Shown: positions 3,900 through 43,905 of the stretch, piece after piece | Layout of the letters: every line of letters starts with the position of its first letter | Numbering within the stretch: the stretch's first letter is position 1 | Source of the DNA: Raillietiella orientalis | Taxonomy: Eukaryota | Length of the DNA stretch: 64,000 nt | Direction of reading: 5' to 3' | Assembly: GCA_036172245.1 (NCBI GenBank) | Contig: JAYWIR010000056.1 | Location: 744,001-808,000, forward strand | Program-made: the position numbers and the translations under genes | Notes under the pieces: model-generated | Seen by the model: the letters and a program-made list of their open reading frames with translations, nothing else | The model's database searches: none | What the model was told of the DNA's origin: nothing

Positions 3900-6800
3900 T
3901 AATTCGCTGCGGATGGCCTCCTTGGTCATCCAAGCGTTATTCCTGAGGAGCAGCACAATCCAAGGGCAGGTGCGAGTGGAGGGTCTCCCTCTTCCCGCGT
4001 CCTCCCTCCCTAAGGGCCAGTGATGAGGGCGTGCTTCGCACGGGACCCCCTGGTACGAGACCAGCAGCGCCGGGCCTACCTCTGCCCCAAAGGGCGATTC
4101 TGAGGTAGGCCCCGAGTCCGTTTGAAGGACTTATGTGCCCCTGGTCGCGATGGAGGCCTCGGCCTCCTCACGCTGGAGCTGCTGGAACTGCAGCTGCAGT
4201 TCAGGACTCTAGCTCTAGTAGCGAAGCTATGGAGCACCAGCTGGTGCAGCCCACCTTGAGCGCATGGGCTGAGAGGACCTCCCTTGCCACGGCTCCGTTC
4301 CACCTTAGGGAGCACCTGGGCAGTAGCCATCCGGCGAAATGGGAAGTCCGGTGTAGTATCTGGAAGAGAGAGAGAGCAAGGTGGTTGGACCACGGGCCAG
4401 TTGACAGACGCTGCGACCCCAAGTGCCCCACCAAAGGGACTATTGTGCTGGGGCGAGCTGCTGAGCATCCCCATGGATGTACTCGAGTGGCCCCCGGGGC
4501 TGAAGACTACCCGGGCCCTCCCTCCCCAGAAGTGGCAGGTGTCCTTGTGCGTGACGCCCTTCGGCCTGCCGCAGCCCTTGCAGCCCTCTGCTGCCTACGA
4601 GGGATTGTGCGGCCTGGAGCACCGCCACTGGTGGACTGAACGACAGGGACATCATCTGCTCCGCCCTGTGTTTCCTAAGGACGGCAGCCAGATGGTCCCA
4701 TTTGGGGCATATGCGGACCGAACTTGCCGGCATCCTGGAAAGGATGTAGAGGACGACTCCAGCGGAATGTGATCCCTTCCCCAACTCCTCCCTGCTTTTG
4801 TAAATAGTGTTTTCTTTTTGTTTTTATTTGTCCTTTCCCCCCCCCTCCGCTGCCGAGTCGAACTCGCCAGCCTGCGTGCTTGCTACTCGGCAATTTCAGA
4901 CTCTTTATTAGAACATTTTTTAGGACGCTGTAGGGGCAATAGCCCTACACTTGCTTGTTTGTTTTTACTAAAAAAATAAACGCCCCGGCGCACCCGGGTG
5001 TAAAAGCAGCGCCGACCCCTGTCACCCGGGAAAGAGGCTGTGAATGTTCCAGAGCACCAGGGACCACTTCCGGTCTTCTCGAGGTCTTCGACAAACAGCT
5101 CGTCCCAGCATAGGAGTCCCTTGGGTGGGACGCTCGCATCAGGGATCGGTTGGCGTGAGAGATTGGAGAACCTTCAACCACCCTTCATTCCTCTGCCACC
5201 CACTGGCGATCCCGTAGGCAAATCGCCCTAGGACCCTTCCTTTATCTCCTCTGCATGCGACTGCGGAGGGATTGTCCCGATCAGCGCCGGGTGGAGTGAT
5301 CCTCACGGATCCGTCCTTCTTTCCCCTCCGACTCCTTGCACGATGCAGAGAGTCCGACCTGGCTGTCAGGGGCGCTCCTTCTGCACTGCTACCATTTCCA
5401 CGCGACCTTTGGACGAGAAAGAAGTCAACGACTACCGGTCGGCTCCCGTCGCGGAACCTCAGAACTCAGTCATGATTGTCCAAGTTGTCCTCGGCCGGGA
5501 ACCAGCGCCGGGGGGCTCCGAACTCGACGCCCGGGAAGCGAGCCAACGGCCACGCCGCTACTGGGATGGAAGTCTCTTGGAGCGCTGACCGGAGAGTCCC
5601 ATCGGCTTTTCGGGGGACGAGGCATGGGGACGAGAAGGACGAGGCCGAGACTTCCATCGCGAGTGACCTCCGCTGCCCCCCCCCCTCCCGGACGGCCTCC
5701 CTCCCACAACGAGCGGGAACGCTCGCGTGCGAGGGAGACCTCCTGCTGGCCAGTGGCGTCGGTCAGCGTGGCAACGCTGCAATTCTCTAGGACCCTAGCG
5801 ACCGCCGGAGGTTGCATTTCCGGCCCCGGGGGGGAAAAGCAGGAGCGCAGCTGCCGCCGACTCGCAGAGCCACCCGGAGGCGTGCACGGCACGGAAGCTT
5901 TGGAGCTGTTCCTCCTTCCTCCCTTCTCTTCGCCCCGTCCGCGAAGACCGAGCGTTCCCGCCACCCCTCCTCCAGCGTGCTGGGTTTCCCCCTCAGGGGA
6001 TCCTCACGCGATCCGACGGACCTTTTGGATCGGCCGGCGACGTCCGCGTCCGCTCGGGGAGGTGTCCTTCCACGATGTTCCCGGAGGAGCGGGAAAGCGC
6101 GCCTTCCCGGGAAGCCCCGTTCATGGTAGCTTGCGCAAGAGGCGGAGACGCAGAGGCTGCTGAAGAAGAACTCGACGTGGCGCCTCCGGGCGGCGACGCG
6201 AGGAAGCCTCCGCTGGAAGAACGCAGCTTTGCTGCTGCGCGTGCGCTGCGCTGCAGGGGGCGCACTCGCGAGCGCACGCGGACTGGGACAGCCGCACTCC
6301 AGAAGTCGCCCGCAGGAGGCTGCGGGCCGCGCTGGTGCGAGATGGATGCGGCGCAGTTGCCTGGTCAGCCAACCGCTCCAGGGGGACGCATTTTGATCTT
6401 GGGGGAGATGGGGTCTAGGGCTCCTTGTCGACTGCGGGTCGGTTTCACGTGTCCCTATGAGAGTGCCTTGAGGGTCGTGATTGCAGGGCGAATGCTGGGG
6501 CACGAAGAGTTGGAAAAGCGGCGACCTCTGCATGCTGAAAGGGAGAGGCCGAGAGCCTCTCCGGGATCATAGGAGATCCGTTCCTTTGAGCCTGCCTCGC
6601 ACCGAGCCCGCTCGTTCGCACCCTTTGTCGTGGGGGAAGGAGGGGAGAGGGAACCTCGTAGGGCTCCCCATTTCTCTGCCGCAGTCCGTAGCGCACTGCT
6701 TGCTCTCCCAGAGGATCGGCAGCCACGATCCTCCTTCTCCCTCCCTATCTGCGGCCGCGTCTTCGACCACTCGTTGGGTTGGCTGGCACCGGGACGGTCA

Positions 6801-12132: not shown

Positions 12133-16454
<4,322 letters not shown>

Positions 16455-19400
16455 TATTTAATTTTCTGGAATATAAATTGAAATCATAGGTAATTAAGCC
16501 TGAATTAGCAAAGGAATCCTTTTCAAAACTGGTGATCATCCTAAAACATGATTTGTATAAAAATTGAAACATTTCTGAAAATTGAAACATTTTCAAAACT
16601 GATTGTTACCAACACACAAAGATATGCATTATTAACTAGTGCGATTCATTCAATAAAAAAAAAACAAAATTGGTACAAATGTATAATTCATCACAGCAAT
16701 TTCCAAGATACATATAAATTATACTCACAAAAAATGTTGAGCAAACCGAAGAGGTCTATTAAAAAACTTTAGCACTCTGATTTATGGAAATCACATCAAC
16801 TTTATTGTATGAATACAATTGGTACCAGCATGCACCAATTCATAAAATCATATTGATTCATTATTCAAGTACACATTGTTCATAGCCATCTAACAGATAT
16901 CCTATTACAATAGTTTTTAAAAACCTAATGAATAGCCAGTATTTTATATGATAAAATGATAAAGTCACGAGGCAGCACCATACAATAGAGTAAAATTGAT
17001 AAAAATTCTAAATTGAAATAAGAAATCACAGTTTTCAAAGATGCTGCAAACACAGATGTATTGTTAATTTTTCAAGATTAGTTTCTTGATCTCGTTTCTT
17101 ATCTGGTGAAACCATCAATTGCAATCCCCTGAATTTTCAATTGCTCTATAGTTCACATCATTATTTGCTTCTTACAAAGTCACAATGGCAATTCATTGTC
17201 ATCATTATTTCCCATAACTTCCATTTCCCCATTATGCTTTGCTTTCTGTATACCATTTAGATTGTTCTGTTAATAAACAGCCATTACCCAAACACTATCT
17301 ATGCCTAGTCATTAAGTTTGAATTCTCAGCAATTGAAACTTGCAGTCAGGCATTAGGCATACTACTTTCACTTGCTGAAACTTTCACATTTCAGCAATCT
17401 TTCTGTTTCCCAACTTTAAATAAACATCACATACATGTGATGTTATTCTGGGCATTTGGAATTCCAAACATGATTTCCAGAATATTTTTATCAAAAGTTG
17501 CTATCCAATTAACATCTTCATCAGTGAGCTCTGTTTCATCCTTAAATTACTGTTTTAAATATTTTTAAGAATATTTAAAACAGTACAAAATGCTTTTGGG
17601 ACTTGAAGATTAACCTCAGCATGGACCACGTGAAAATATTCATCCATTTTTAATGAAAACAAGCCATATCACATGGCTATTTTTGCTATTTGGAAGGCTA
17701 ATACGGAAATCATTCATTACAAGAAATCAACGATAAAATCCTTTCAAAGTTGGCTCATAATGATGAAGGTCAAATTGAGGAATACTCTGAGCTCATGAAT
17801 GTACTCATGTTTGTGCATCTCCCTTTACATTATTGAATTCATAATACATGTATTGTGTGTCATCCAAAAATGTGTGATATGTTTCACATAACTGTAAAAG
17901 GAGTTGAAGGAATCAAACATGACAGAATGTCTGAGGATAGTTTTTTTCTACAGCTGAATTTGATAACTGGAATACTCTTTACTACAAAAATAAGTGTAAA
18001 CTCACAAAAGCCAAAACTAGCTCTGCAATATGATCCACTTTCAAATATGGAAAGCAGTTCGTTTCAAACTAAACAATTCAAAAATACCCTGCCAAAATCA
18101 AGAATAATCTTGCAATATATGCTGAGTGATTAATTTCTAACAATGAATAATCAATGAACTTTACATAAAACACCAAAATAGCACCTTCCTCATGGGAATC
18201 CTTGTATGAAAAAAAAAAAAAAATGCTCTAATTTTAATGCAATTTTTCGAAACTTAATATCATTTTTGGATATGGCCTATTAAATCAATACACTTTTTTG
18301 GGAAACTTAAAATAGCACAGGAATTGAAAACACACATATTTTTACTTTGAAAATGCATGCTGTACTTATTTCTGATATCAACAAGAACATGTGGGCTGAC
18401 ACATTACAGAAAAGTATATTTAAGCAATAAGAAAAAACTGAAACACAGAGGCCATTAACACAAAAAACTTTAAAACTAGGGCAATATAACCAGAAAAAAA
18501 AAACAAAAACAATGAATAGAAAAGAAAAACATGAAATTAGAAGGAAACAAAAAGACAAAGCATGGACTTAATTTTGAAAACACTAGTTTTTGTAAATACA
18601 TGCCATGGATATGGATACCCTTGATAAACAAAAATATGCAATACTTCATGATGCTGAAAAAATGGAATGATGATCATAGTGTCTCTGATACTGAAGAGAA
18701 ACGTGCAATCCAACTTGCAGAACATTTCATGTTATGCCCCCAAGCTATACACATTAAGAACTGCTTGAAGAAACTACATGTACCAGTAATTATGTACGTA
18801 TGCACGAAACAAACAATGCAATATCAAACAAGTTCAATATAGTAAACTACTTAAGGGAGCATAATTTTAAGATCGTAATTACATTGACCGACTTTGAAAC
18901 TACATTGCTTTGGGATACTTTTAAGAATTTATTTCAAGATAGCATATTCAGAGGCATTCAGGTGCGTGGTTATGAACTCACTTAGGAACGCACTCGACAT
19001 CAACTCAGTGAAATGCATATGCTCCAGGAAACATTAATCGGAAACGGACCTTAGAATTATTGAGGGGAATTTCATTAAATTAAATTAAATTCTGATGATC
19101 ACTTTATAAACTTGTTTAAAACCATACGTACTTTAACACATACAATCGATTCCTTAGAATTTTTTGGATTCATCGACATACATTTGCGGGAGAATTACGG
19201 AAATTTAGTTCCTCAAAAATTGATTTGTAGTTTGTGAAAAGGTGCAAAAATTACATGCAACATGGAAGCCTCATCTACCGTTCATATTAAACCTTCACTT
19301 AGAATTTAGGTTAAAGGTCAAATCGAATGCAGTCTAATAGATTTGATCGGTCTGATCGATCGCTCACTTGAACTTTGAATGCACAGCAATTTTAAGTTTG

Positions 19401-21392
19401 TCTGAAGCAATGCCCGAGTCGCATCAAAATTGGTATTAGTCATTATTTATGAACACAAGATACTTGTTTTCTAATAGGCAAAGGAACCTGAGGATGCACA
19501 TGATACATAAATATGAGTTAATTAAGAGCAAATCCTCAAAATTTACTAATTTGATGAAACTTGATTCATATGAAATGCACACTTTACAATAGGCTCTTTA
19601 TAAAAATTAAATTCAAAACACAACAGTTTTAGCTGACGCTAAACCAGGATGGGGTTTTCTTTAGAAAAACGAAAATTAAACTCGGGCAATTTGGGAAAAC
19701 ATATGATATACACATAATACCTTATGAAATTTCTTATACGCTAACATCCATATCGCAATCATTTCTTCATGTGGAGAGAAGTAATACACTCAAAGCCAGA
19801 ATTATCGATAAATGCCAGGAAAAAAACAATAAAAACAAGTTCTTAATTCAATTCAGTACAACCAGCACACGAAGACAGGCACCACAGCATTCTACTCGAA
19901 TTGCATTACAAAATCAGCGTTCCAACCCCAAGAATGCAACTACTAATAAGCACCGCCCTTTTTGCTATGTTAATTTCATAAAAATAATCACATGGCAGAA
20001 TACATGCCGACTGCATTCTCTGAAGAAAGGAAAAATATTTCCCCAAAGATGTGCACATATTTTTACTAATTTCAAGAGGACAAAAAATGTACATGAAAAT
20101 TCCATCTAAATAGGCAACTGCGACTTTTCACATGCTCTGACAATATTATAGTCGTAGAAATAGCAGAGCCGTCCTATTCTGAAAATTATCAAATTTAACT
20201 TTCTTCTAACGTAGTCATTTTTCCTATTTCCTGGAAGCAATTACATTTTTGAACGCATGTATGACCTTGTATTTCATTACGACAATAAAGATCATTACAC
20301 AAACTGGCTAATGTTGCTGTTTTCAATGACGGCATTAAGATTATAAATTCTGATTCATAATCAGAGATTTAAAGAAAAATATGCATTGAGATCATTTAGG
20401 TGTTTAGCTAATGTAAAAATTGTAGTTATTCAAGTATTCGGATTTACTGCTGTGTGTAGAAAAAATACAATAGAAAAAGAAATCGAATCCTGAATAGGAA
20501 TAAAATTCTCATATAATTCAGAGCAATTTGTTCGTAAAGTTATTTATATTTTTATGAACTAATCCAGTTATGAATGCAGTATCTCTTCCCACATAACACA
20601 AATTATACTTATACTGTCGCTTGAATTGCCATTCTACGTAACTTCACTTTAAAATACCGAGTAGAGTATTTTAAAACGAATTGACTGACCACTTACTTCA
20701 AACGAAACGGTTTCTTTGAAAAAGCCTCAAAATCAAGCAAATTTCAAAAATAAATGCCATGTGCTGAAATCACCAAGTTTAGAAACCATTTTCTGTGGAA
20801 ACACAAGATCAGTCAAGGTGCAAACATGGATAATTCTTTTACAGGATATAGGCAAAAAAATTGCTCTTTGTTCCAATAGGGTTACAAATAGAACAGCAAT
20901 TAAACTCTTTGAATTAGATGAAATAGGAAACACTAAGCAAGTAGAACTATAAACTACGACATAATTAGCAGAATTATCAGGCAGGAAGTCTTCCCCCTTG
21001 TCTTTAATTGATTACTTTTCGGTGAGCTGCATTCAAAATCTGGCTTCAAACTCTCCTAATATTGTGAATTAAGAAAAAAAATTGCTACATTCTACTCATT
21101 TATAAAATCACGGTGAACATTGATAACTGAGAAAATGGGAATCATTGGCTTGTACACTCAGATGCAGTGTTTTCGGAAATCATTTACTTAGCCTTTGTAG
21201 AATTCTTTGCATCTTATCGCATAGCTTATAGTAAATGCTGATTTCCTGATGTAAAATACATTCTAAATAGCAGTCAACCATATCAAACAGAAAAACAGCC
21301 TCAAACTGCTAAAATGATATAAGCCATTATATATATAACCCAAAAAACTACTTAAACAACAGCAACAACGAAAACAAAAAAAAAACACTCAC

Positions 21393-21803
21393 GAGGAAAC
21401 ATTGCAAAAATTCTTACTTCTTTGGTGCCAAATTCCAAAAAATCACAGAGGAATTTGAATATAGAGGAAAATGATTGTAATTTCAATACATTAATCAGCG
21501 AAACTATGGAAAGTATCGAAAATGATTCTTCTTCATCCTTTTGTGTATCTATTTATTATCAAGCTTTCCTTTCACGTTTACGTGCTCTCTAGCATCCCTA
21601 GTGCCTATCGTTGTAATGTACGTATCATGACATTCTTGGTGTACAAACGATCCGATCGTCATCACGAATAACTGCCAAACTTTGAATAATAAATAATGTT
21701 ATGATACTCTTTTAGAAATATATTTCTGAGCTCGGGTTCAGCCAACCTTTTGAACTTTTTCTCCTTCAGTCTGCTTTTTCATGCCACCTTTGTCTTTGCA
21801 GAC
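21393..21803. promoter_or_regulatory. Putative bidirectional promoter with 5' UTR exons for SRPK (-) and Ku80 (+)
   Basis: Outward-facing consensus donors: GTGAGT on the minus strand at 21392-21387 and GTAAGT on the plus strand at 21804. Both genes have an acceptor upstream of their ATG exon (16466-67; 23931-32), and CpG is locally more frequent. Inference only. Confidence 0.4.
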
Positions 21804-24014
21804 GTAAGTATTGCTTGGAACCATTGATGTCTGCACTTGAATATGAAACACATCAAACACTTCCAGCATTCAGTCTTATTTTCAACTATTTCGTTGCAAG
21901 TTGTTCCTGAAAGACGAACTCTGCTATTAGCTTTTGACATTTGGATGGTGCACTGTTTTATGGCGTTTCTTGCGTGAGCTAACTCAATGAGACAATTTAA
22001 ACGTTTTGATTAAAGCTTTCTATGAAACTAAAAATTGTATTCGAAAAATTCTATAGATTCTATCAACGGAGCTGGAGGGCATACTACAATAATGCATTGA
22101 AGATCTGATATGTTTTATGATCCTCAGATATGGAAGTCTCTATGGTTTCAAGCGTAATGAAGATCTAAAAAAGGTTCAAAAGTAAAACTGCCAGCATAAG
22201 GTGTTCCAAATGAGATAAATTTGGAATACCTTATGCCGTATAAATTCCACTATTATCTTAGAAAAAATTTTTTTTTGCTTAGGAGAGAGTGCGTACGAAA
22301 GAGTTTCGAGTAGTATAAGATTAAGAAAAGCAATGTTAAGTTTGAGGGTGTTCGTTGCTGTATCTCGAAAGGGGGAAGTTTACTAAGGCGGAAAAGCATG
22401 TGTTGGTGTTTACTAACCGAATCCTAACGGGGCTTCCTACACACAATGCACCCACCGGCAGGAACACCACTCCTTGCAAACAATTAGAATGCAATAATGT
22501 ACATAGCAGTACAGTAGAAGAATACACATAACGGTGAGCAAGAAGCAAGCCGATGTTTCAAAGTGTACAAATTCAATGCTGATAGACATTGCAAAAAGTA
22601 CAAATTGTTTATTGCTTTAATCCTTGAAAGTGATGTGTAACTTCCATGAATTTCGTAAGCAGCGGTCGCTAATAGAAAGAATTTCCGAATGAACATTTAC
22701 AAGTGCTCAGTTTGATCCATAAAAGCAAACATTTAAAAACAAGTAGCATTTTGTTCCTAAATAACTGTTAACATTCGGCAAACGAGGATGACTCAAGCAT
22801 AAGTAAGGAAGTAATCAAGGCAGAGTTTTATTCAATCCATCATCTCGCTTCCGTGGTTGGAGTATTTTTTTTTTTTTATATATATATGTTGGGAGTACAA
22901 ATGATGTCTCTTAAGGAAATATGTCAATTTACAATAAGTGCCGCCAATAAACAATAAGAAAGAACAAGGGATTTCAAGGGTCCTTTTGTAAAACATCCGA
23001 TATGAACATAACTAATCCACGCGCTAATTTGTTTTTCCTTTTTATGATCCTTCTATGTGATCACTGACTTCATGAATTGAAGTGGCGATGGATTCAAAAG
23101 CCATGTTACCCCGATTTATCGAATCGTTTTGTAGCATTTGAGATGTGAAGTTCATGATTGTTACTGAAGCAGGCATCTAAAGCAAATGTAGTGTCGTTTG
23201 AAGGAAGAAGCGGCAAACTAATATATATTTATGTTGAATGTTTTTATGGATCTGTTTTCATTTGCATTGAAAATGATGTATAATCATTTTTATGGCAATA
23301 TAGAGACATCTATGAATCGGTTGCCATCCACTATCTCCAACGTGAAACGAATGATTTCCATGATATTTTTTTTAGAAAAAAATTTGTAGTCGTTTGAGTG
23401 ATCAGTATTCATTTATGTGATGCATTTCTTTATTAGTGTGACAGTGTTAACTGAAATTCAATTGGTGACATGTAGCTCACCAAGTGGCATTCAATTGGGT
23501 TTTGCGTTTAGGTTTAAGTAATTTAGTTGAGCATCAGAGTTAAGATTTATACCAAACTTTATCGTCTTTTTTGGATTGTGCTTACCAATGAGTTTAAAAA
23601 TATGCTTTACAAAAACTGGTAATTTGTCAGTATTGTTTTTGTCTCTGTCAAAGTCGTAAATGCACACAAATTTAGAGCTAATCATTGCATTCCTCTTTTG
23701 TGTCATAATAGCAACTTCATAGGAGATGTAATGTGTGGTGCATCAGAATCAGCTGTGCTGTTTTCATTGTTTCTATGACATTTCCGTGGATCACTTTGAT
23801 TGACAAGTTCCTTGGAGTGTTGAAGTGTTCTTTGAAGTACCTGTATTCCAAAGTGCTCTATGAGTTACATGACTCCTTTGACTCTCAATTTAAATTTTGA
23901 AGTGTACGTTTGAAGTATATTACTTGATACAGGAGATGAGAAAATTTTTGATTCCAAAATAGAAATCTCTATCTCAGCTAAACCTTTGGGATCTGAATAT
24001 CAAACACAAGGAAA

Positions 24015-27000
24015 ATGGTTACTGCTTCCCAGGTATCTTTGATTTATAAACCCATGATTTATTTTGCATTATGGGAGTAAAAGTTCTGGAAAATACCGTT
24101 TTCAGTTGGTTTTTGCATTGCTATTATGTCTATGTGAATATGTTTAAACTCTTTGAAGATTCAGTTTTTAAAAATGGTTTGTAGAATGGTCTCTGCAGAA
24201 TGGAGTTGGCGAACAAAGCTCTATATTCTCATAGATGTAATCATTTTAGTGAGATACTATGATTAATGTGAATACAATAATAATCATCTTTTGGAAAAAA
24301 TGAGTGGACATTTTAAAATTGGAAAGCTCTGGTTTTTTTTCCCCACTTTCTATTGATATGTTTTAACTTTGGATTTAAGTTGTTTATCAATGAAAGTTTC
24401 ATCATAAAAGATTTTGCTTTGGCAAAGAAGTTGGTTATTTGTATTTTCACTTGATTTGAGCACAAGTGTATTTTATAAAACAGTGTCCCCATTAATATCA
24501 ATAGCTGCCTTTATGCTTTGAGTGCTAGAAATATAAATGTCAATTAAAATTTTTTGCTTACCATGTTAATTCAGATTTTTCTAAAATTCAGAATTTCAAA
24601 AAGACTTTCTTTTGTTGTCCTTGTCTTTATCAATCATTTTACATCAGTCATTAAATTGTTCCTTCCCATATATGGTTGCAAAAGCCCTGAATAAACAAAA
24701 TTGATATGTGACCATGATTACTAATCCTGTAACACAGTTATTCCTTCAGTGTTGTTTTCCATTTGAAGTGTTGTAGATTCAGTAATTCTTCTATCAGTTG
24801 GTTGGATACTGTAATGATGCAGTCATATAGCATACTTTTTGGGGAAGATGTAAACTATTTAGGGATATGGAATTCCAGATCCCTAATTTCTTTTAAAGAA
24901 ATTATGGATCTGGACTTAGAAAAATTTAACATAAGAACTTCATTTTAACTTAATTTAGAAACTTAATTTAACTTAGAGAAACTTGAGTATATTTTAAAGC
25001 TTATCTGAACACATATGCTGTTAATGTGCTGTTTCATGACATAGTAAAAGAATGCTTTAATTTGCTCTTTTTTCAGGAAGCCATTGTTCTTATTATCGAT
25101 GTGGGGTTACTTGCACATAGTGGAGAAAAAGGCGTACTTTTCTTTGAACAGTGCCTGAGTTGTGCATGCATGATTCTTCAGAGAAAAGTAATTTATCCAA
25201 GTGACTTAAGTTCTGACCTTCATTAATTTCATGTAGCTGTTTGCTGAGTCCAAAGATGATATCTGTGTGATTTTGATTGGCACTACTGAGACAAACAATC
25301 CTTTGGCTGAGGATGACCAGTATAATCACATTTCTATCATTCGCCCTTTGAGTCCTGTAGACTGGGATATTATTGAGTACCTTGTGAATTATCCTAGATC
25401 AAATACTTCATCTGCAGATTGGTTGGATGCATTGGTTGTAGCACTGGATCATATACAGCAATCTCACAAGTAACAATATGAACATGTAGAATCACCAATG
25501 TTTCCCAGGAATTACACAGGAAAAAAATTAGTATTATTTACTGATTTTGCTGAGTCTGTTTGCTGTGACCACTTTGATATTATTATCAGCAGCATCAAGG
25601 AAATGAATATAACCTTGAATGTCATGTAAGGAAAAACAGATCATGTGTTATTTTTTTTAAAGAGGTCCGAGTATTAATTTGGATGAGCAGTCATTAAGTC
25701 ATCCTTCCATGAATGAGCTGAAATATGAAAAAGGAGAGACATTAATTGCACAAATAATAAGACAGGTGACCTTGAAATTTTGTATATTATCAGTCATTAT
25801 AACTGCATTGGTTGGGTTGAGACAGTGCCATTTTTATGTAAAGTGAAAACTGACTGAGTGTTAATAAATTAGTTGAATGCATAACTTTTCGATAGAACCT
25901 CAAAGTCATGTGTTTGTTTTCAAATTTCTTCTCATTCTGTTTCTGAATTGAAATTTTTTTGTGCTGTTATAGGTTGATGGTGACATTTTTAGTTTCGATG
26001 TTGCTATTCCTCAGCTTTTGTATTATCCAAAAAAGGCAATCCGACCATCACCATGGAATGCCGTTTTGAAGCTTGGATCTTCTCTGAAGATTGCAATTTC
26101 AGGCTATATTAAGGTATGTATTTATGAAAACTTTAAACTATGTATTCATTGAAACTTGCAAAACTGGTTTGTGCAGACTAAGGAAGCTACATTGAAATCT
26201 TGGAAGACGATGCATCCTAGCCAGAGAGATGCACCTATTATTAAAGAAAAGAGTTATCATTGCATGGATGACAATCTAACAGAAATTAGTAAGGAAGATG
26301 TAATCCCTGGCTATAGATATGGAAGCACTGTGGTTCCTTTTACAGGTAAGTCAAATTTTCTAAGCAAAAGTCAAAGAAGGTTGCCTTTTTTATTTGTTAT
26401 TTGTGCCCAGAGGAAGATGCTGATGCTTTGTCATATAAATCAGGAGAGAAGGGAATTTGTGTTCTTGGATTTAGTCCCTCAGAATGCATACAGCATTACA
26501 ATTTCATAGGAAGCAGTGTTTTGTACGTGTTTTCACGTCCTGGAGATTTAGTAAGAAACTTCTGAACTACATAAATCGAAGAATAATTCTGTAATTTTTA
26601 CTTCAGGTTGCTCAAAATACTTTGTCAGCTTTGATACATGCCATGAATAAAACTCATACAGTTGCCATTGCTTCCAGGATATACAGTCAAAATGCAACAC
26701 CTAGTCTTGGTTTCCTTACAGCCAAACTGAAAGCCACTAAAGAGTATTTGATATGGATTGCCTTACCCTTTATGGAGGATGTGCGTCATTATAGTTTTCC
26801 AAGATTTCCAGAAAGCAGTTTGCCCACTGGTGAGCAGCAACAAGCCATGGATGAACTAGTAGATGCCATGGATTTAACACAAGGAGCGAGGTAGCTGTTG
26901 TGTTTTGGATATAATTTTTTGTGTATTTACTATGAAACATCTATCCAATGTTTTCTGTTCACCAGGACCAATAATCATTAATGCTGTGTGGAATATTTGG

Positions 27001-28043
27001 TGGCAGATTTCATTAAAAGCTTTTAGTTTTGCAGATAATTTTTGTATTCATTTGAAATTTTTATAATTTTGTTGAATTTTGTGAAGTGCAAAGGCCAGAT
27101 CATATGTACAAGGGATGAATCTTCTCGTGATTTTTCTGATTAAACAAAATCAATATTTGTGGACCTGGGAAGATGTTTTGATTATGACTTGAGGACAGTT
27201 CTGTATTTCAGCTTAGATGATACAGACACATGTATGGAAAGTTTGCAACCCAAGAACACAGCTAATCCTGGCCTTCAGCGTGTTTATCAATGCTTAACAC
27301 ACCGTGCATTGTATCCACAACAGAAGCTACCTGAACTGGATGATTGTTTGAAACGTTTGTTGGAGATGCCCAGTTCTATTAAGAGCAAGGTGGATGGCAT
27401 GTTAGAACCCATTAGCAAGTTGTTTCCTGTAAAATTCGTGTGCGAGAATGCAAAAAGGCAAGTAGATTTTAAATTCTTCTCAGAAGAATTTAAAATCTTC
27501 ATTATCAACAGTTCTATACTTTAGAGAAGGCTTATCATCTGGAGAGAAGCAGTCTCAGAAGAATGCAGATGATTTTCAGGGGACCACTGGTGTTTCCCTG
27601 ACATCACCATGTGAGGATTTCTTGACTTTGTTGCAAAAGCATGAAAATTGGGAAACAAGTAACTGAAATGCTGAATGCAATGCAAGTATTCATGCTGCAT
27701 AGGTTGGCAACAGTTAGCCAATGCAACATGGCACCTGTTGATGGATCAGTCTTTGTCACAGGAATCACATAAGAAACACCAAATAACCAACTGTTTACAG
27801 TTACTTCGTTCTCAAAGTCGGCTTCATAGCAATGGTCTATATGAAAGTTTTCTCAAAGATGTTAGCAGTGGTTTCCAACATTTGAACAGGAGTCACATGC
27901 TTGTGCATCTTTTAGAACAAGGTTAGTAAGGTGGGGATGCAACTTCTCTAATAAGAATTTATGAAGAGGATCTTTTCTTCATTTCATCCATGGTGCATGG
28001 AGAGCCAAGCAATTCACTTGGCACTGGGATGATGGAGCATTAA
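24015..28043 (+). CDS. XRCC5: Ku80 (XRCC5) DNA end-binding NHEJ subunit, 13 coding exons
   Basis: Exons 24015-24032, 25077-25187, 25237-25469, 25509-25625, 25663-25765, 25973-26113, 26177-26345, 26411-26550, 26607-26890, 27212-27457, 27525-27658, 27703-27921, 27967-28043 (last exon least certain). Motifs: MVTASQEAIVLIIDVG, LFAESKDD, ADWLDALVVALD, GYRYGSTVVPF, LPFMEDVRHYSF, MDELVDAMDL, NPGLQRVYQCL. Confidence 0.95.
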
Positions 28044-28156
28044 AACTGTAGCATTGATGTATGTGTGTGTTTTTTTTTTTTCAGTTATGCTAGTATTGTG
28101 TTAGCAATCCATTCTGATGATTGTTCCATTACATTGTGTTTTGGCAATTGCTAGTC

Positions 28157-28595
28157 ATGAATCAGAAAACTCCCATTCATAAGATTAAGGAGTTACATTT
28201 GCCAATCAGCAGGGTACGCACCATTATGAAGAGCTCTCCTGATGTGGAAAATGTTAGCCAGGAATCCTTGCACTTGATCACCAAATCAACGGTAAGTACC
28301 AAAAATTTCAGCAGTCCCGCTCCATTAGCTTGCTAGGAATTGTTCTTGGCTCATTTGGCACAACTGGCTTACCAGTGCAGCTGTATCCACCAAGCACAAG
28401 GTGCAGATATCACTTACAATCATTTAGCCCATGTTGTTCAGGCTAAAGAATCATTAGAGTTTTTGCATGGTAGGTTATCATTATCTTCTCTTTAGCAGCC
28501 CATCTGTTAAAGATATCATTCCCAAGAAAATCACTGGTAGAAAGTACTTGGAAATTTTAGCTACTCAAGAACAGCTAGAGGATGATTTTCAATGA
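28157..28595 (+). CDS. CHRAC1: Chromatin accessibility complex protein 1 (CHRAC15/Chrac-16 histone fold)
   Basis: Exons 28157-28291, 28337-28469, 28513-28595. LPISRVRTIMKSSPDV...ITKSTELFL..LA...ITYNHLA...EFLHDIIPKKI..RKYLE matches CHRAC1. AATAAA follows immediately after the stop. Confidence 0.93.
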
Positions 28596-28716
28596 AATAA
28601 ATTATTCAATTTCTAATCTTTAAAAAAATGTGGATTTCTGGTGGGAGGCTATTGCCATCTACCACCCCAGCAATTCAGAGTAAACATTGAACATATCCTT
28701 TAGGTACATATCGGAA

Positions 28717-29220
28717 ATGTGGAATGATCAAATCAAAATAGAGGGTGGAGTGTGGCTAAATAAATTTCTGTACATGGATGCAGAAAAAGTATATCAGGAA
28801 CACCAGAGTCACCTAAGATTTCCTGTTGCAAAGGTTTCTCAAAATTCGTCTTGCCTGCCAGCTGAACAAAAAAGCATTGCAGAAGAAATTGCTAAGGCCC
28901 GCTTAAACATTCAAAAGATCATGTCTGATCTACGTATCCTTTAGCATGTGAACTGCTAACTTTCCTTTACACAGGCAGCTAAACAAGATGACAAGCTTTT
29001 GTTGGAAAGAATCAGTTGTTTAGAAAAGGATAAAATGAATCTACAGCAAGGTCAGATGTCTTAAATTAGTGCTCGTATCTATGTGCAGCTTTCAGTGGTG
29101 AATCAGCAGCAGCATGCATTAGAAGATTTAGCTGAAAGATTAGAATCCTTAGAGAAATTTATTTGGTCATTGGAGCGTCTGACCTTCTCTTTATCTCAAC
29201 AAAATCTGATTAAACAATGA
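28717..29220 (+). CDS. Elongation factor 1-delta-like protein, N-terminal domain and leucine zipper only (137 aa, no GEF domain)
   Basis: Exons 28717-28933, 28979-29050, 29096-29220 (414 nt). VWLNKFLYMDAEKVYQE, IAEEIAKARLNIQK and LERISCLEKDKMNLQQVVNQQQHALEDLAERLESLEK match the three N-terminal blocks of EF1-delta. Confidence 0.8.
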
Positions 29221-29238
29221 AAACGAGGAACTTATTCT

Positions 29239-31284
29239 TTACTCTAAATCTTCTTCTAAGGCTTCTTGTCCCCATGATAGAAGCAAAGATTTACGCCAAG
29301 TGTTGGATTTCTGTTCCATTTGTATGCAGTAGTTTTGTAACTGGATTTTCACTTGGGCATCATCACCATACAATGGCAGTCCTGTGATCTCCTCAAACAG
29401 TTGTTCTGAAGTAGGGCACTGCACATCATGTTTCTTGAAGAACTTACAAACAGAACCTAAGATTTTTTCTGATTATTTGACTCTTACTAGGCAAATATTC
29501 CGGCAGTCTCTAAACAAAAAGTGCATTCCATTTGCTTGGTTAGGATGTACTGACTGACCCACATCAATAAAGTAAACCTGGCCATCCAGCCATAGTATGT
29601 TATATTCAGATAAATCAGCATGAATGAGATTGCAGGATTGATATAATTGCTTCATATTCTGCAAATTCGGATGTTAAGCAGAAATCACCAATGCCTATGA
29701 GTACCTGGGTCACATTATGATAGGTTAGCTCCCAGTCAGCAAGTTCCAGATGGATATCCTTCAAAGTAGGTGCTGGTTTTTGTTTATGACCAATAAAAGA
29801 CATAACAAGAACGTGTTTACGCAGCAAGATTACTTGGGGACATGGGATTTCTGCTTTAGTCATTTGTAACAGATTGCTCTTCTCTTTGCGAGCCCAACAC
29901 TGAATCCACTTACGAGAATTCTGTAAATCAAATTATCACTGCAATTTGGGGATTTCTTACCATATGAGAAGAGTACTTTGGGAACTTTTCTTGGAAGTAC
30001 TGTGTTCGGTTTTTGAATTCATTTAATGTTTTGTATATTTTGATGGCACATCCATCTGGTAGATTTGGATCACCACTGACAGCATGCAAAATTACTGCTT
30101 CCTTGCCGGTACTTATGATTCCAGTGACTTGCTCTAGGATTCCTTTATCCATTAACTTATGTAATATTAAGCGGGTTTTAACATCCAATGCTAGTTCAGA
30201 AGTTGACTTATCCATTTTATCATGTACACGATGCTGACGGTGTTGCTCCTGACAAGAATATACTTTCAGTGAATTGTACACCTATCAACACAAAGGCAGG
30301 AATGTATAATGAGAATTAAATCTTTTCTATACCTTATTTGTAAGTTGCATATCAAAATCACCTCCATCTCCAGTCTGAATGTCTGAAGAGAATTCCATAA
30401 CTTTCAACGCATTCTTTCTCTTATTGAATACAGGATCATGTTTTGTAGTGATAGTATCTCCACAGTTCCTATATCCACACTTTGGTATTGAGGCTAATTC
30501 ACGGGTTTCCTAGTTGTTGGATACATTTTGTGAAAATGCATTTTAATGCCACCTCTATACCAACCAAATTATGGCAATCTTCCTCCCATTTATCTTCTAA
30601 ATCATCCTCTTCATCTTGCTTATGATTTTCAGTAATTCTGAAGTTGTCAAAGGATACACAAACTAGTGTGAGTCATAACTTAGAGGTCTCCCCCTTTCCT
30701 CTCCTTGATATTACCTTTGGAATTCCCATTCAGTTTTCTCTCTACTCTTTCTAATTGCATATGGTGATATTCTTCATCAAACTGCAGTTGCAACATTTGG
30801 GCTAGTAAAAAATCACTGCTGGTGTCTATGCATGTAGGTGCCAGAGAAGGGTTTGTTTCTGATATTTCTCCAAGGGCAAGCAAATCCCTGCAAAATTTTG
30901 ATTTACTATGGATCCATATATTTGTTAGAAGCTGAAATGATCAATTATCTTCAACATTTACCAACAATCATTTGCCATAAGTTGAATATACATTTATATG
31001 AAATGCCATGCAGTCTGTTCCTTACATCGAATTGAATCATATAACAAAAATGAACTGAATTACTAATTCAATACTATATCAGAAATAATATAATTTTTTA
31101 CTTTCACAACAGACCACAAAGCGATTCTATACAGAAAAGAAAAATCATACTGTTCTTGTGTGTATGCTGCCAGTTCTTCTAACATAAGATCCTGAAAAGG
31201 TTTTGTATCTGTGGCATTAATTGTTCCCCAAGGATTCCTGGCTTGATTCACAGTTAAAGAGTCAACTTCCGCGATTACGCTCAT
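29239..31284 (-). CDS. RIOK3: Serine/threonine kinase RIO3, 8 coding exons
   Basis: Exons 31284-31151, 30887-30715, 30662-30553, 30509-30333, 30281-29961, 29920-29705, 29658-29488, 29442-29239. RIO3-type motifs NPWG, SDFLLAQMLQLQFDEE, TTKHD, TGDG..FDMQLTNKVYNSLK; kinase motifs STGKEA, HADLSEYNIL, FIDVGQS. Confidence 0.96.
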
Positions 31285-32356
31285 TTTTGAAAAACAATTC
31301 TGCGCGATTTCTAGAAGCATCTCATAGTTATTATCATATCACAAACAGTATATCAGTGTCACATAATCCTCCCATTAATCCAATCATCAATGTGACTACC
31401 TGAATTTCGCTTCAGCTTTGGAATACCTATTTAAACATTTCCTTAGATCTGTCATCATCGATGCCAATCTTTGAGTTTTGTCAAGGAAAACTTAGACTTT
31501 TTTCTACCAGCATCTAAGTTTACCAGACGAGTACACGTTCCTACTCGGTTTTCCAGTATGCAACACACGCTAACTTCAATCACGGACACCAACATTTCCT
31601 TTTCATGAGAACGAAAGAATTATCTGCATCGGACAGAACAATTTTTTCGATTCTCTGGGCAAACATCCCACCAATGTTTTGTTCGTCCAATCTCGAGCCT
31701 GCTTGCTTTGCTTCATTCGATTTTCCACTACACCACGGTAGCACTCCAAATTGAAAAAAAAAAAAAACACACACACACACACCAAAAAATGAAACCGTGA
31801 AAGAATTTCCGAGATATGTTGGTACTGGCTCATCATGCACTGCTTGTTATTCAATCACTCTTGCTTGCATTACTTCGCGCTTACGTCACGGCAAACGGTG
31901 TTTCCTTACGGTAGCGCACAACGTCAGCGTTCGTATTTATCTTGGATTTCGTTTTGGTGCCAGCACTCGTTTCCTTGTTTAGATAGAGTTTTCACAGGGA
32001 GACTGCGGCAAGGAGAAAAAAAAATTGTTCTGATACAAAAAACCCGTCCAGAAAATCAAAAGAGCTCGAAAGCAGGAAATCTTTAGATCTGCTGACGATC
32101 ATCTATGCACTCTTGTTTGTCTACTGACACTGGTTTCATCAGTCCACAATGATTAAGCGATTGTTATAATTGGGGCATCCAGAAGAGAAAATGATATTAC
32201 ACCTCTGCACTCCATCATCTGGAATCTGCACTCCATTGTTGAAATTGTTTCAGCATATGAATCAGAAAGCCAGATTATTTACAACGATCTTAAACACAAT
32301 AGTGTGATAGGTAGGAGAATAACGGGAACTAAAACAAACGCGGTTGCACGCCAGGA

Positions 32357-37765: not shown

Positions 37766-40700
37766 TTACTTCTTAAAGACGTGCTGAACTTCGAGGTCAC
37801 TCTTATCCTTGCATCTGAGTTCTAGGATTTTGATGTCATCGATCGCGTATCCTTTGTTGACCCCCGTTCCCTCGAACACAAGACGAAATGGCCCCGAGTC
37901 CATCACGGCGAACTGAGCGGGCCTCCACTTCACAGGCAGGTTGGTTGCCCACGGCTTCCAGGAGCTCGTCTGGGTCTTCCCTGGACTTGTGCTCCACAGG
38001 ACCACCTGCGGAGAACCATTCGAGCGAAGACGAAGGGGGCAGGGGAACCGGTGGACCCACCTCGCTTGGGAGCGGGTGCTTCGTGAGTGAGGAGTCGTTC
38101 TGAGGTTCCATCCGCTGCAGTACTCTCAAAGAGACGGCGTCCCCGTTGACCTGCTCCAACAGCCAGAACGTGACGCACATGTCTTTATTCGGGTCTTTCC
38201 TGATGATCGGACTGCTGAGGCGAGCGGTCCGAACGGATCTGCCACCCGTAGTCAGTTTGAGGAAAAACCCTACAAGAAACGTCCCCTGACACGGAGCCAG
38301 GAGTCCCACTTCGGGTTCGCTCCCTCCTCGCTCCACTCTGTTCTTGCAGGAGGCCAGGAGCCTCCCACGATCTGAAGCGGCTCAGTTCAAAATCCCGAAA
38401 GATTATAAAAAATAAATATATTACATGTATAACGTGTTACACACGTTACTATTACTACACTGTATGCATATAATAAAAATATATGTATGAGATCGAATGA
38501 GAAACACGTATTCATCGAAAGATCAAAATGCCGAAAATACAATTCGTCAATTGTCGTGTATTGAAAATGACAGAAAAATCAGATACCAAATCTCTTTCTG
38601 CTTTTTTGATTTGTCTACATTGAAAAAAAAAAAAATTCCACGATTTTTTATTGTCATGGCTGTTTTCTATTTTTTATAATTCGATATCCATATATTCAAT
38701 ACATATTTGTTATATATTGAAATTTATATGTAATAAACGTATGCGTTTATTTCTATAATCTTTAATATTAATATTAACAATATGTTAATGCATATTGGTA
38801 ATCATGCCAATAAGATGTGCTAATAAATATTAATCAACATATGTTAAAATAATATTAATATTAATAATATCTATGCTCATATAAATTTATCTGTTAAGGC
38901 ATATATGAATATATGTATTAATATACTGATATATATTTATATGTATATAAATATATTAATATATATGTATTAATGTACATAATAGGCATATATATTCGTT
39001 TTTTTAATAACCTTTATGATATATATTGATCTCTCTATAAAAAATACATCAATATATATCATAAATACATTATTAATTACAGAAATATATACAAGAAACA
39101 TTTATATTCATTTTTAATAATCGTTCGGGGTGTGGATGGGCACCCCGTTACTCCCGTGGCTACGTTGCCTATTCTCCCTGGGAGCGCGTTCCTCTACCAG
39201 CGGTTACCGCGGGCGGTTGGCTGTACGCGCTGCAAGAAGTGCTCGTGCCTCGTGGCTGCGCAACTTCAAGAAACCAGGTGATTTCCGGTCGCTGCGCCCC
39301 CCCCCCCTCCAAGCAACACCCGCATGCTGTCCTCCGAGACTCAATTTCAACAGCGGAGGGAATGCTTTTGCTGCGCCTTCCTCCTCCTCCCTATCAAGTG
39401 TGGCGTCGACGGGAAACGCATCTACGGAAGCCTACGCGGGAAAGATGGAGTCTCCGAGGGAATTCACCTGGACGGCCCCGGGTGCGGCGGCGGAGGCGCA
39501 CAGCAAGGCGGGTTACCAGAACGCGGAAACCCTTGCTGGCCGTGTCTCTCAAGTCGCAGGGACCGGATGTTCAAGAAGGACACGCCCGGAGGAGTTTCAC
39601 AGAAGCCAAAGGTCGGCTCAGAGGCTGCGGATGCGCGCATCCGCCGAGGGCGCTACGCAAGCGGGCCCTCGTCGGAGGGTTCTTTCGTTACCAGACGACA
39701 ATCCCTCGGGCATATGCGAGAGAAGGGGACGCTCACTGCCCGACAGGGCCCGGCCACTTCCGAGCGATCAGGTGATTCCCTTCACAGCCCCCTCACCCGG
39801 CCACTCCCTGCTCTCCTTCCAGCTGAGTCTCTCTATCCTCGGAGAGCTCTTCTCCCACCCGCAGTGCACGTCCTCGGAGTCGCTGCTGTATCCGCACAGA
39901 TCCTCGTCGTAGTCGAAGTTGCAGTCTCCGACGTGGACCTCGGACTCGGGGGGGAAGGCTGGAAGATGGAGGCACTCGCCGACGCGACCCTTGGCAGGTG
40001 GTGCGCCTTACTCTGACAGTCTCCTTGCGAAAGCACCACATCGTCGATGGCGAAGGTGGTGTTGCCCCTCACGGAGTTGAAGACCGCTTCCATGATTACC
40101 TAGACGGGAGAGGGTGGGGTGTCAAGTCGCGCGACCACGCTTCCGGTCGCCCACATACATAACCCTCGCCAAATCCCCTTCCCTATTCCTCCACAGCCAG
40201 AGACCTGGCGCGGCAAAGAAGGAGACTCCAATGTTCCCAGGCGAACGCACCCTCTCGCAGAGCCACTTTGGGACTTTTCCAAATGGGAGCCCTCAGAGAC
40301 GGGTTCGGTTGCTGCGTTGCTCTTGCGGGTGCCATTTTTTTTCCCCAACGAAAGTCCTTCTTCAGTTGAGCTCTTCCGGGCTTTTCACAGGTGCTTGCAA
40401 CGAAGCACTCGACTCCCATGCGGAGCGGACGAAGCTTCCTGAATCCTCCTTCTTCCCCTTCGTTCTTTCTTACTCCTCCTTCTCTCTGCACCCCCCACCC
40501 CCTCGCCAGTCTTCTCCCGCCCGCGCCGCCATCGCTCTATGGCTTCTTTCCTTGTCCTTCCTCCGATGCCTTCTTGCTTACCTTCCCGCCCGCTCCCTAT
40601 TTTCACCCTCCTCTCTTTCTGAGGCTTCGCCTCTTCTGCTGGCTCTCCTGCTCTCCCTCCGACATCGCGAACGACGATGTTCGTGGACGGAAAAGGAGAG

Positions 40701-43700
40701 GGACGAAGAAACCATCCAAGACTCTCCTCCCTCCTTTCCACTCTTGCCTTCTTCTTCCTCTTCCTCTGCTTCCTTCTCCTCCTCCTCCTTCGGGCGATTG
40801 CAAGCCCCAGTTTCGGGAGGTCGCACTCCATCAATTGGCACCATCGTGGGCGGGTAGGTGAGAGGGCAGAATCCGTCGCCTCCGACGCCGCCACCTCCCA
40901 CGAGAAAAGGCGCGCGTTACCTCCTGCCGGAGGCTGGAAAGGAGAAGAAAAGGGAAGCATCTCGTGAGCTGCCGTCATCCTCCGCGCACGTGCCAGGTGG
41001 GCGATTCCCTTCGGTAGCTTTCGATCTTCCTTAGGTGGCTCGCTGTTGCTAGAAGGAACAGGGCCACGCGGGGAAGGAGCGGGAGCAGCGGGAGAGGAAT
41101 TCGGCGTCCCCAAGGACGCCGAAGACTTCGAGAAACCACGAGCTCGCGGCGCAAGGAGAAAGGGCGCATGCGGGACCTACAAAATTTCCCGCATTTGAGT
41201 CCCTGGTTCTTCTATAACTCCAGGTACTTCCGCTTCCTGGTGGCTGGAGAGGGATCCCGGGACAAAACGGCCTCTCGGGATCCCTGGTCAGATCTTCGAA
41301 GGTGCTCCGTTCTTAGAAGAGGAGGAAGGGAAGCGAAGGGCAACTATACTGCTGCCGAGCCCTTGCGCTGGTGGACCGCAGCGGTCACGCTGCACTCGCC
41401 GTCTACTGCGGTGCCTTCGGCAGCGTCCCACGCCTCGAGAGTGTCGGGACCAGTCGCCTCCGAAATGTCTCCTCTCCGAAGGAAACCGCGAGGAACGGCG
41501 CCACTTGGTCTCGAGGAAGGCTGACAAAGAGCTTCCGCGCCGCGAGGGCACCTCCCAGAGAGAAGGGGAACCATCGTCCTTGCGAGAGCCTTCTTCCGCG
41601 AACAGCCCCTTTCCGTGTGGCCGTGCGTTCGCGGTCGCCGGCGGCTTTCACGCGCAACCCGGAATCGAGTCTCCGCCCGCCCGAGGGAGTCTGCATCTGC
41701 ACCTCCGTCCTCTCCCGGGGAACTGCTGGCCGGTCGTGAAGGCGAGCGCATCTGGAAGCGATACTTGGACGGAACTCGTGGCAGAGAAAAGGGAAGTGCC
41801 GGACCGCTGCAGGGGAGGAAGAAGGTAGGTCTTCCAGCTCAGGCCGGACGGGCTCTTCCGCAAGCGATCCTTGAACGACCGCGAACGTGCCATTCTGCCT
41901 CACCCGAACTGGACTTGAGCCGGCGATCCGCACTTGGGCAGGCATCCATATGGGGAGCTGCAGGGTGGTCGTGGACCAGACGGGCAGCACGTGGGTCTCA
42001 TTGCCCTCCTCATGCTGGAACAGCACCCGGATGTCTCCAGGGTTACTCGAGCGGGGTTGCGTATCATAGCGGTAAAACCAGAATGACAGGCAGAGGGCGC
42101 CGCCGTCCTCCACGTGGATCTCCTTGGAAATCAGGCAGGCACTCATCCCCCAGTGCTCCTCGGCTGGCTGCTCGACGGAACAGAAGGATCCTGAAGAGGA
42201 GCGTCAGCGCATATGGGGCGCTCTAGGGCTTTTCCTTGCCATCTTCGCTGCCGAAGGTGTGGTCCAGGTGGAGGGAGGGGTGATTCTTCCCGGAGACGCG
42301 CTCCCAGCTCAGAGCGCACCATTTCGAATCGTAGTTGGAGTTCCTCCACCTACTCTGGGTCAGGAGCTTGCCCCCGTCCTCCTCCTTCTCGGGCCCCCTC
42401 CACCCGCACTCGTCCCCCTCGAAGTCGCAGTCCGTCTGCGCCGATATCATCCAGTGCGGAAGAGCTGGAAGAGAAGCGGGCGGACTTCCATCTTTCCCCC
42501 GGGTGAGCAGCGCGTGGTACCGGCACACATCCGGTTAGTCATAGAGATGTCATCAAGGGCGATGTCGCTCAGGTGTGACCTGCCGATCCTCCCCTCGAAA
42601 ATCAGCTGGGCACGCCAGCAGGTTCGACCCGTCGGACTCTCCGCCACTCACCGTGAACTCGTCCCGGTAGCGCAGGGTCACCTGCGCCGGGAACCAACCT
42701 CCTGGAACCTTCGTCTCCATGGACCAGACCAGTTTCATCCGCCCGTCGGCGTCTCTCACCAGGACCCGCAGAGAGCCCCCGCCCACACCCACCATGTGCG
42801 CCTGGAACCGCAGGCATCTCCCTTCTGGAAAAAACGCACGGGCGTTATCGGGCACGAGGGGAACGTGGCTGAGGCGGCGGAAGAGGAGAGCGAGAACCTC
42901 CTGCTTGTTCCTTCTCCGGGAAAGAGGACGCTGCGTTCCGCTCGCGCCCCTGGAGGGCGCAGCAGTTGCCACTCACCCAAGGCGTCGTCGCTGGCTGGAT
43001 CTCCTGGGATGACAGCCAGCAGCTGGGCTCTGTCCCCCGGGAGTGCAGGGAAAGCGCTGCGGAGTGACGCGAACCATCCCGAATCGGAGCTCCGGGAGTC
43101 GTGCCTCGGCGACGAATCTGGGAAATAACTGCCGCGGCTCTGCGGGAAGGTAAAGCAGCCCTAGGGGACTTCCTCCCCCTTCCGCTCTCACCAGCACCCA
43201 GTGGAGCTGATGGCCGCTTCGATCGCTGTGGTACATGCAGAGATCTCCGTCGTCGAAGCTACAGTGGCCGACGCATTCGGAGCGGCTCCGCACCTGCACG
43301 CCGTCGACGGCGAAGAGATTCCGGAGGTCCCAGTGGCTTTTGTGCAGCGTGCTGAGCTCGCCCTCGATGACCACCTGAGAGATGGCGCCGCGGTCGAGAG
43401 GAAGGAGCTGCGCGCGCAGCCGGTTCGCGCCCTCGGAACTCTCGGAGTCGGAATAGGGGTTGGTTCCAGGCGCGACCCCCAACCATGCCTTTCCCATATA
43501 CGCCTCTAGAAGCGATGCTAGGCTCTGTCCGTCTCCAAGGCTGCGGAGGAAGGACCCCGGAAGCGAGCAGCCTCTGCCTCTTGCAGCGCAGATCCGGGGA
43601 CGCTTCCTTCCTCCGAGCAAGGAGAACGTGACAGAAAGGCTGCTGGCGGACGGACTACAAAGCTCGCGCGCTTCCATGGGGCGGACGCCTCCGCACGTGC

Positions 43701-43905
43701 TCGAACAACCCTGTCCGAGGTGGGCCCATCAAAATCTCCAAAGCCGGAATCCCATAAGATCACGAAAATAAATATATATATATGTGATATAAATATATAT
43801 ACATTACAATAAATATATATACATTATATATATATATGTGTGTGTGTGCACCTGTGTCTGTGTGTACTTACATATCCATATATGCATATCCAGATATCTC
43901 TCTCT

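Follow-up and report, generated by a model that had tools for sequence, protein, structure and literature searches.

Operons whose messages are resolved by a spliced leader have arisen several times in animals, for reasons that are still debated. According to the available portion of PMC7986045, the intercistronic distance of such operons is approximately 100-112 nucleotides (nt) in Caenorhabditis, the medians for Ciona and Oikopleura being 1 nt and 31-57 nt, respectively. In the chaetognath Paraspadella gotoi, the accessible part of PMC12460157 describes operons as runs of genes less than 250 bp apart that carry the leader on at least one gene, account for 18% of the gene set and contain an excess of housekeeping and germline genes; the same excerpt proposes that operons and strong gene-body CpG depletion form an uncommon combination. 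The locus considered here lies at 24015-29220 of a 64-kb stretch of contig JAYWIR010000056.1 (the window, to which all coordinates refer) and contains three co-oriented genes encoding Ku80, a CHRAC1-like histone-fold protein and a protein with the N-terminal motif of EF-1delta. Their spacing resembles that of the Caenorhabditis operons, for which a preliminary description of this locus had correctly assumed about 100 nt. It is possible, although not quite probable, that the three genes form a polycistron that is transcribed from the Ku80 promoter and resolved by a spliced leader.

The three genes are intact, intron-bearing and arranged head-to-tail on the plus strand with short intercistronic regions. 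The Ku80 coding region (24015-28043) is separated from the CHRAC1-like gene (28157-28595) by a spacer of 113 nt (28044-28156, spacer 1), and the latter from the EF-1delta N-terminal-like gene (28717-29220) by 121 nt (28596-28716, spacer 2), exactly as the preliminary description had reported. Both downstream ATGs are the first in-frame ATG of their frames. Elsewhere in the window, intergenic stretches exceed these spacers 40-50-fold in length, measuring about 4.5 kb between the CpG-depleted SRPK and Ku80 bodies and, past RIOK3, about 6 kb; compaction is therefore a property of this cluster and not of the genome as a whole.

The clearest non-random feature of the cluster is the occurrence of a polyadenylation hexamer at each of the three gene stops. 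On the plus strand, ATTAAA at 28039-28044 overlaps the Ku80 stop (offset -2) and AATAAA at 28596-28601 directly follows the CHRAC1-like stop (offset +3), so that both signals described earlier at the spacer starts are confirmed, and an additional ATTAAA at 29209-29214, absent from that first reading, is located 4 nt before the EF-1delta-like stop (offset -9). The plus strand of 23.5-31.25 kb contains 15 such hexamers, or one per 517 nt, and 25 of 441 stop-like triplets have a hexamer starting at -9 to +3; for three gene stops out of three the corresponding chance is approximately 1.8e-4. A 3' signal of the upstream gene is thus present at each intercistronic edge, and a hexamer at every stop suggests that the three messages are terminated separately and have hardly any 3' untranslated region (UTR), in which case about 95 nt are available for the creation of a new 5' end for either downstream gene. 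Outside the cluster, the SRPK hexamer is found 27 nt past the SRPK stop.

Downstream of the first hexamer, a GT-rich stretch gives way to 13 consecutive T (28058-28086, plus strand, ending in TTTCAG/TCAGTT), in agreement with the GT/T-rich tract noted previously, and the second hexamer precedes a G/T-rich stretch. The tract at 28058-28086 could be a downstream polyadenylation element, a nucleosome-excluding promoter tract, or both. A near-copy of this composite (GT)n(T)n tract (29 nt, 90% alike) was identified at 31749-31777, in the CpG-rich region that precedes RIOK3 (about 470 nt before its ATG, and oriented alike with respect to this gene), and a weaker copy at 21376-21392, between SRPK and Ku80, compared with none in 100 shuffles; the recurring tract could be promoter-associated or merely a common microsatellite. 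In spacer 1, TCAGTT fits the arthropod initiator consensus, and TCAGTY occurs nine times in the 7750-nt block, so that one copy within a 113-nt spacer is an event of about 12%, i.e. chance level. Spacer 2 contains the TATA-like run TTTAAAAAAA at 28619-28628 (plus strand), about 90 nt before the EF-1delta-like ATG. RNA families were not detected in the spacers, with one chance-level match to a small nucleolar RNA within 27900-29300, nor was an unusual fold, the spacers having z values of 0.17 and -0.61 relative to shuffles.

As a proxy for promoters, CpG content distinguishes the inner genes from their neighbors. All four genes of the region (the three tandem genes and RIOK3) are contained in a CpG-depleted block (23400-31250, observed/expected ratio (o/e) mostly 0-0.4) with CpG-normal flanks. 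Normal ratios are reached at a distance of 600-1200 nt before the Ku80 ATG (0.87-1.15) and directly before the RIOK3 ATG (0.95-1.06 over 600 nt), whereas the two spacers together contain one CpG versus 6.3 expected (none in spacer 1 and one in spacer 2; P=0.013), and 300-nt segments with the CHRAC1-like or the EF-1delta-like ATG at their centre have a ratio of 0.19-0.20. The earlier statement that the spacers lack the promoter-like CpG content seen upstream of Ku80 and RIOK3 is therefore borne out. If depletion marks transcribed bodies that are methylated in the germline, and promoters are unmethylated, then only Ku80 and RIOK3 have such promoters. The 600 nt immediately upstream of the Ku80 ATG (23415-24014) are CpG-depleted like a gene body (o/e 0.22-0.39) and contain strong donor-like sites (that at 23619 scores 7.7) along with acceptor-like ones at 23932 and 23977, which together suggest that Ku80 probably has a non-coding leader exon or outron upstream of its ATG.

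Under the operon interpretation, a promoter located at least 600 nt before the Ku80 ATG, in the region of restored CpG content, would direct a polymerase through all three genes, and the 3' end of each message would be formed at the hexamer on its stop codon. The 5' ends of the CHRAC1-like and EF-1delta-like messages would be created approximately 90-110 nt downstream, where a short leader would be trans-spliced to an acceptor before the ATG. This layout, which is that of downstream genes in nematode operons, is suggested by the spacing, the Caenorhabditis-type distance, the 3' signals and the lack of CpG recovery at the inner genes; a single promoter and read-through are inferred from these features, and leader splicing is the most conjectural of the proposed steps. 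The functional linkage that had been proposed for the cluster holds for two of its members, as ACF1/CHRAC acts together with KU70/80 according to the available part of a review (PMC4615051), whereas the third gene has no evident link to either; genes of an operon need not share function.

The lineage of origin bears on this interpretation. In a tree of SRPK proteins (36 sequences and 602 columns, sampled without nematodes, tardigrades, other non-arthropod ecdysozoans and tunicates), the window groups with cockroach, millipede and chelicerates (Shimodaira-Hasegawa-like approximate likelihood ratio test (SH-aLRT) support of 98) and has a long branch (1.04). The protein collection searched contains no close relative: among named SRPK matches the best, from spiders, cockroach, millipede and molluscs, share 65-69% identity, followed by vertebrates at about 60%, and no nematode proteins were present among the best 120 matches. 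From these protein comparisons, the source is read as belonging to a fast-evolving, unsampled line of arthropods or of other ecdysozoans. The long branch beside arthropods was counted in favor of an operon because leader splicing is recorded in several fast-evolving animal groups, including copepods and amphipods, in the available portions of PMC7986045 and PMC12460157. A chaetognath origin was also considered and rejected, as chaetognaths have no gene-body methylation according to the excerpt of PMC12460157.

A number of observations weigh against the operon interpretation, beginning with the splice-like sites. Short introns, sampled as 20 introns across 12136-31284 of the window, range from 39 to 65 nt and cluster around a mode of 45 nt; their 3' splice sites (10 CAG, 7 TAG and 3 AAG) hold little information, and the acceptor matrix built from them, together with a donor matrix, separates poorly (leave-one-out mean of 2.0 for real sites versus 1.3 for 311 background AGs). 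The acceptors previously proposed before each downstream ATG are indeed present, namely TTGCTAG at 28148-28154 (plus strand), 2 nt before the CHRAC1-like ATG and 116 nt from the hexamer, and CCTTTAG at 28697-28703 (plus strand), 13 nt before the EF-1delta-like ATG and 108 nt from the hexamer. However, they are no better than chance: their scores of 2.6 and 5.3 are equalled by 34% and 8% of the 311 background AGs, respectively, and the pair is matched by two random non-coding ATGs 13% of the time, or 6% when the acceptor-like sites of Ku80 and RIOK3 are added. RIOK3, despite a CpG-rich upstream region of its own, has an equally good acceptor-like site before its ATG. The further statement that no usable donor occurs in the spacers fails, as donor-like sites are present in both of them (plus strand), GTATGT at 28059 in spacer 1 (score 3.9) and GTGGGAG at 28641-28647 in spacer 2 (score 5.45, which places it among the best 2.7% of 293 background GTs), the latter being located 63 nt before the acceptor at 28703 and thus within the 39-65 nt range of real introns. 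Since the acceptors are at chance level and donor-like sites are present, the argument from acceptors without donors does not hold as evidence, though it is not contradicted either.

The remaining points on this side concern promoters, methylation and gene arrangement. The evidence for a single promoter is a proxy, namely the unbroken CpG-depleted block, and it is weakened by the SRPK gene, where CpG depletion peaks close to the 5' end and weakens in the 3' direction, so that two small genes could be strongly depleted by virtue of having 5' ends of their own; moreover, a very small promoter might leave no CpG trace. The T-run, TCAGTT and TATA-like run could serve such small promoters, though they are no more frequent than expected by chance. 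The depletion of CpG in the gene bodies is a sign of gene-body methylation, whereas chaetognaths, nematodes and ctenophores, all of which have leader splicing, lack gene-body methylation in the account available from PMC12460157, and the portion of PMC7986045 at hand reports no operons in the arthropod groups that have leader splicing. The convergent pair formed by the EF-1delta-like gene and RIOK3 is as tight as the co-oriented pairs, and an operon does not explain it. Finally, a leader RNA family was not found in the 64 kb with Rfam, although a search confined to the window says little.

Many of the same observations would be accommodated if the three genes were independent and had very small promoters, each spacer combining a polyadenylation element, a core promoter and a short 5' UTR within one methylated domain, and this explanation is retained as a tentative possibility. 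It suits the grouping with arthropods, in which operons are not on record as far as the excerpt of PMC7986045 extends, and it provides a role for the run of 13 T with TCAGTT immediately after it in spacer 1, for the near-copy of this tract in the CpG-rich DNA upstream of RIOK3 and for the TATA-like run in spacer 2. It is also consistent with the 5'-biased depletion of SRPK, with short 3' UTRs that look general rather than peculiar to the cluster, given the position of the SRPK hexamer, and with a compaction that extends beyond the co-oriented pairs to the convergent RIOK3, where the 3' ends overlap. The explanation is strained by the space that it leaves, since the approximately 95 nt from the expected cleavage site to the ATG would have to hold both promoter and 5' UTR and are at the lower limit for this purpose, and by a CpG content that, in contrast to Ku80 and RIOK3, does not recover at the two putative starts. 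The chance-level frequency of TCAGTY reduces the weight of the initiator-like word, and the remainder of the window is not compact.

Trans-splicing would be dispensable if a non-coding leader exon before the Ku80 ATG were shared by all three genes and joined to each of them by alternative cis-splicing, each gene retaining its own polyadenylation site. Shared-leader cis-splicing is known from the cholinergic locus, and the body-like CpG depletion of the 600 nt before the Ku80 ATG, together with the donor-like and acceptor-like sites in this region, would fit a leader exon followed by a 5' UTR intron. Such an arrangement would give one layout to all three ATGs and would make leader RNA machinery unnecessary, as might be expected of a lineage without known operons. 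Yet loci of this kind are rare, two or three polyadenylation sites would have to be ignored and up to 4.7 kb skipped, and the acceptors are again those at chance level; if coding exon 1 of Ku80 served as the leader instead, the sequence indicates that a short upstream reading frame would run over each downstream ATG. This explanation is accordingly judged quite unlikely. Still further down the scale, it is highly improbable that one or both small downstream frames are non-working, as decaying copies or exons of another transcript. The third gene does lack the exchange domain that defines EF-1delta, and a word-based search with its first exon was empty, but both frames are intact over two introns each of modal length (43-45 nt), start at the first in-frame ATG, keep the family motifs at the right places and each terminate at a polyadenylation hexamer.

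The gene identities named in the preliminary description are upheld by the searches, all family assignments being based on single exons rather than joined proteins. For Ku80 (XRCC5-like), an 18-nt first coding exon (24015-24032) precedes intron 1 (24033-25076), and this exon and the one starting at 25077 translate like the N-terminus of Ku80. The Ku core barrel and the features of the C-terminal arm are present (Pfam Ku, E 2e-5; Ku_C, E 3.7e-8), the best match among solved structures is to XRCC5 chains (E 3e-7), and the Ku family was also confirmed in a protein atlas. The match to Ku_PK_bind is weak (E 1e-3; 19.5 bits, under the cut-off of 25), the last two exons have no match among solved structures, and a word-based homology search with one exon returned nothing. 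The open frame runs into TAG TAA at 27924-27929, and a predicted intron of the modal length of 45 nt (27922-27966) would remove both stops; on the strength of this predicted last intron, TAA at 28041-28043 is taken as the Ku80 stop. Retention of this intron would place the stop at TAG 27924-27926 and lengthen the first spacer to 230 nt. The last exon (27967-28043) opens with an acidic stretch followed by DLFF, which resembles the kinase-binding tail motif of Ku80 and NBS1, although 20 further residues come after it in this protein.

The CHRAC1-like gene consists of three exons (28157-28291, 28337-28469 and 28513-28595, plus strand) separated by introns of 45 and 43 nt, ends with TGA at 28593-28595 and encodes 115 residues with a histone fold (Pfam CBFD_NFYB_HMF, E 1.2e-7). 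With exon 1 alone, the best match among solved structures was Drosophila CHRAC-16 (E 4.7e-5), followed by NF-YC/HapE at 0.02 or worse; the histone fold is thus of the NF-YC-like type with CHRAC-16 as its nearest relative, as expected for a CHRAC1 (CHRAC-15/16) subunit.

The third gene likewise has three exons (28717-28933, 28979-29050 and 29096-29220, plus strand) and two introns of 45 nt each, and encodes 137 residues ending at TGA 29218-29220. Although its first exon gave no match in a word-based homology search at E up to 0.01, an exhaustive search matched it to five proteins at E up to 1e-3 (best 4.2e-9, for the N-terminal motif), three of which carry EF1_GNE and EF-1_beta_acid domains farther downstream. 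The exchange domain (EF1_GNE) and the central acidic region have no match anywhere in the 64-kb window, and the gene therefore appears to encode only the N-terminal motif and a probable zipper region; from its predicted translation, it is a free-standing version of this part and not a true EF-1delta. The possibility that exchange-domain exons are located on the far side of RIOK3 was rejected, as the window contains no match. The RIOK3-like gene itself (29239-31284, minus strand; Pfam RIO1, E 2e-21 and 8e-17) extends from its ATG at 31284 to a stop at 29239-29241, so that the two stops converge with 18 nt between them. Its AATAAA (29158-29163, minus strand) is found within exon 3 of the EF-1delta-like gene, and the two messages should therefore overlap in antisense by roughly 100 nt. 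Relatives of RIOK3 in metagenomes were identified at 58 loci, the best being 69% identical.

The window as a whole is animal nuclear DNA organized as a G+C mosaic with sharp edges, the boundaries being a few hundred bases wide. AT-rich stretches at 15-19 kb, 23.4-31.25 kb and 55-60 kb (28-38% G+C, CpG o/e 0.1-0.3) are separated by blocks of 55-65% G+C with a CpG o/e of about 0.9 that are mostly non-coding. Housekeeping genes sit in the AT-rich stretches: SRPK (exons within 12136-14146, minus strand), Ku80, the CHRAC1-like and EF-1delta-like genes, RIOK3 and an SNF2/ERCC6-type gene near 62.7-63.2 kb. The frame of the last SRPK exon (approximately 12300-12400, minus strand) has about 17 extra residues relative to every arthropod and mollusc homologue, which probably correspond to a short intron read in frame as if it were coding. 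A G+C-rich gene with several MAM domains (37769-43728, minus strand; Pfam E 2e-7, 1.8e-6 and 5.9e-5) is located in the CpG-normal compartment, in contrast to the adjoining AT-rich housekeeping genes. G+C-rich fragments that recur at 133-600, 1819-2271, 4109-4769 and 49228-49816 encode a cysteine/histidine knuckle resembling the C-terminal (zinc-knuckle) end of the reverse transcriptase of long interspersed nuclear elements (LINEs), and one protein-atlas cluster among the best matches of this repeat has zf-RVT in 44% of its members. No tRNA genes or Rfam families were detected in the 64 kb at the gathering score.

In a broader perspective, it appears doubtful, albeit conceivable, that worm-style leader-resolved operons with distances of about 100 nt exist in an arthropod-related, fast-evolving lineage alongside heavy gene-body methylation. 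If the operon is real, it would add a lineage grouping with arthropods, where operons have never been described, and it would contradict the suggestion that leader splicing is tied to gene-body methylation being lost. If, instead, the spacers hold promoters, these would be among the smallest expected for animal housekeeping genes, located in methylated-looking DNA, with roughly 95 nt accommodating initiation, the 5' UTR and the formation of the 3' end. The third gene deserves some attention independently of this question, as it encodes the N-terminal and zipper portion of EF-1delta by itself and lacks the catalytic domain.

Compared with the nematode SL2-type operons of C. elegans and C. briggsae, the locus is alike in its co-oriented, unrelated housekeeping genes, in the polyadenylation signal of each gene, here 108-116 nt from the candidate acceptor, and in its short introns, the intron length mode of C. 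elegans being close to the 45 nt observed here. It differs in that the nematode operons are resolved by a leader whereas this cluster is known from its gene layout, and in that the uniform TTTCAG 3' splice sites of nematodes are replaced by a mixture of CAG, TAG and AAG. The gene bodies here are strongly CpG-depleted, 3' UTRs are almost absent, and the closest 120 SRPK relatives include no nematode. The leader-resolved housekeeping operons of Ciona intestinalis and Oikopleura dioica, both tunicates, have shorter distances than the approximately 90-110 nt of this locus; Ciona combines such operons with gene-body methylation, but the SRPK tree, which includes no tunicate, groups the window with arthropods and not with the vertebrate side. 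The chaetognath Paraspadella gotoi has no gene-body methylation, in contrast to the strong CpG depletion of the window's genes. Tight tandem pairs in animals without operons, in which a polyadenylation site adjoins the next core promoter, share T/A runs and initiator-like words with these spacers, whereas the present locus has two successive junctions, of 113 and 121 nt, with no CpG recovery at either and with kilobases of intergenic DNA elsewhere.

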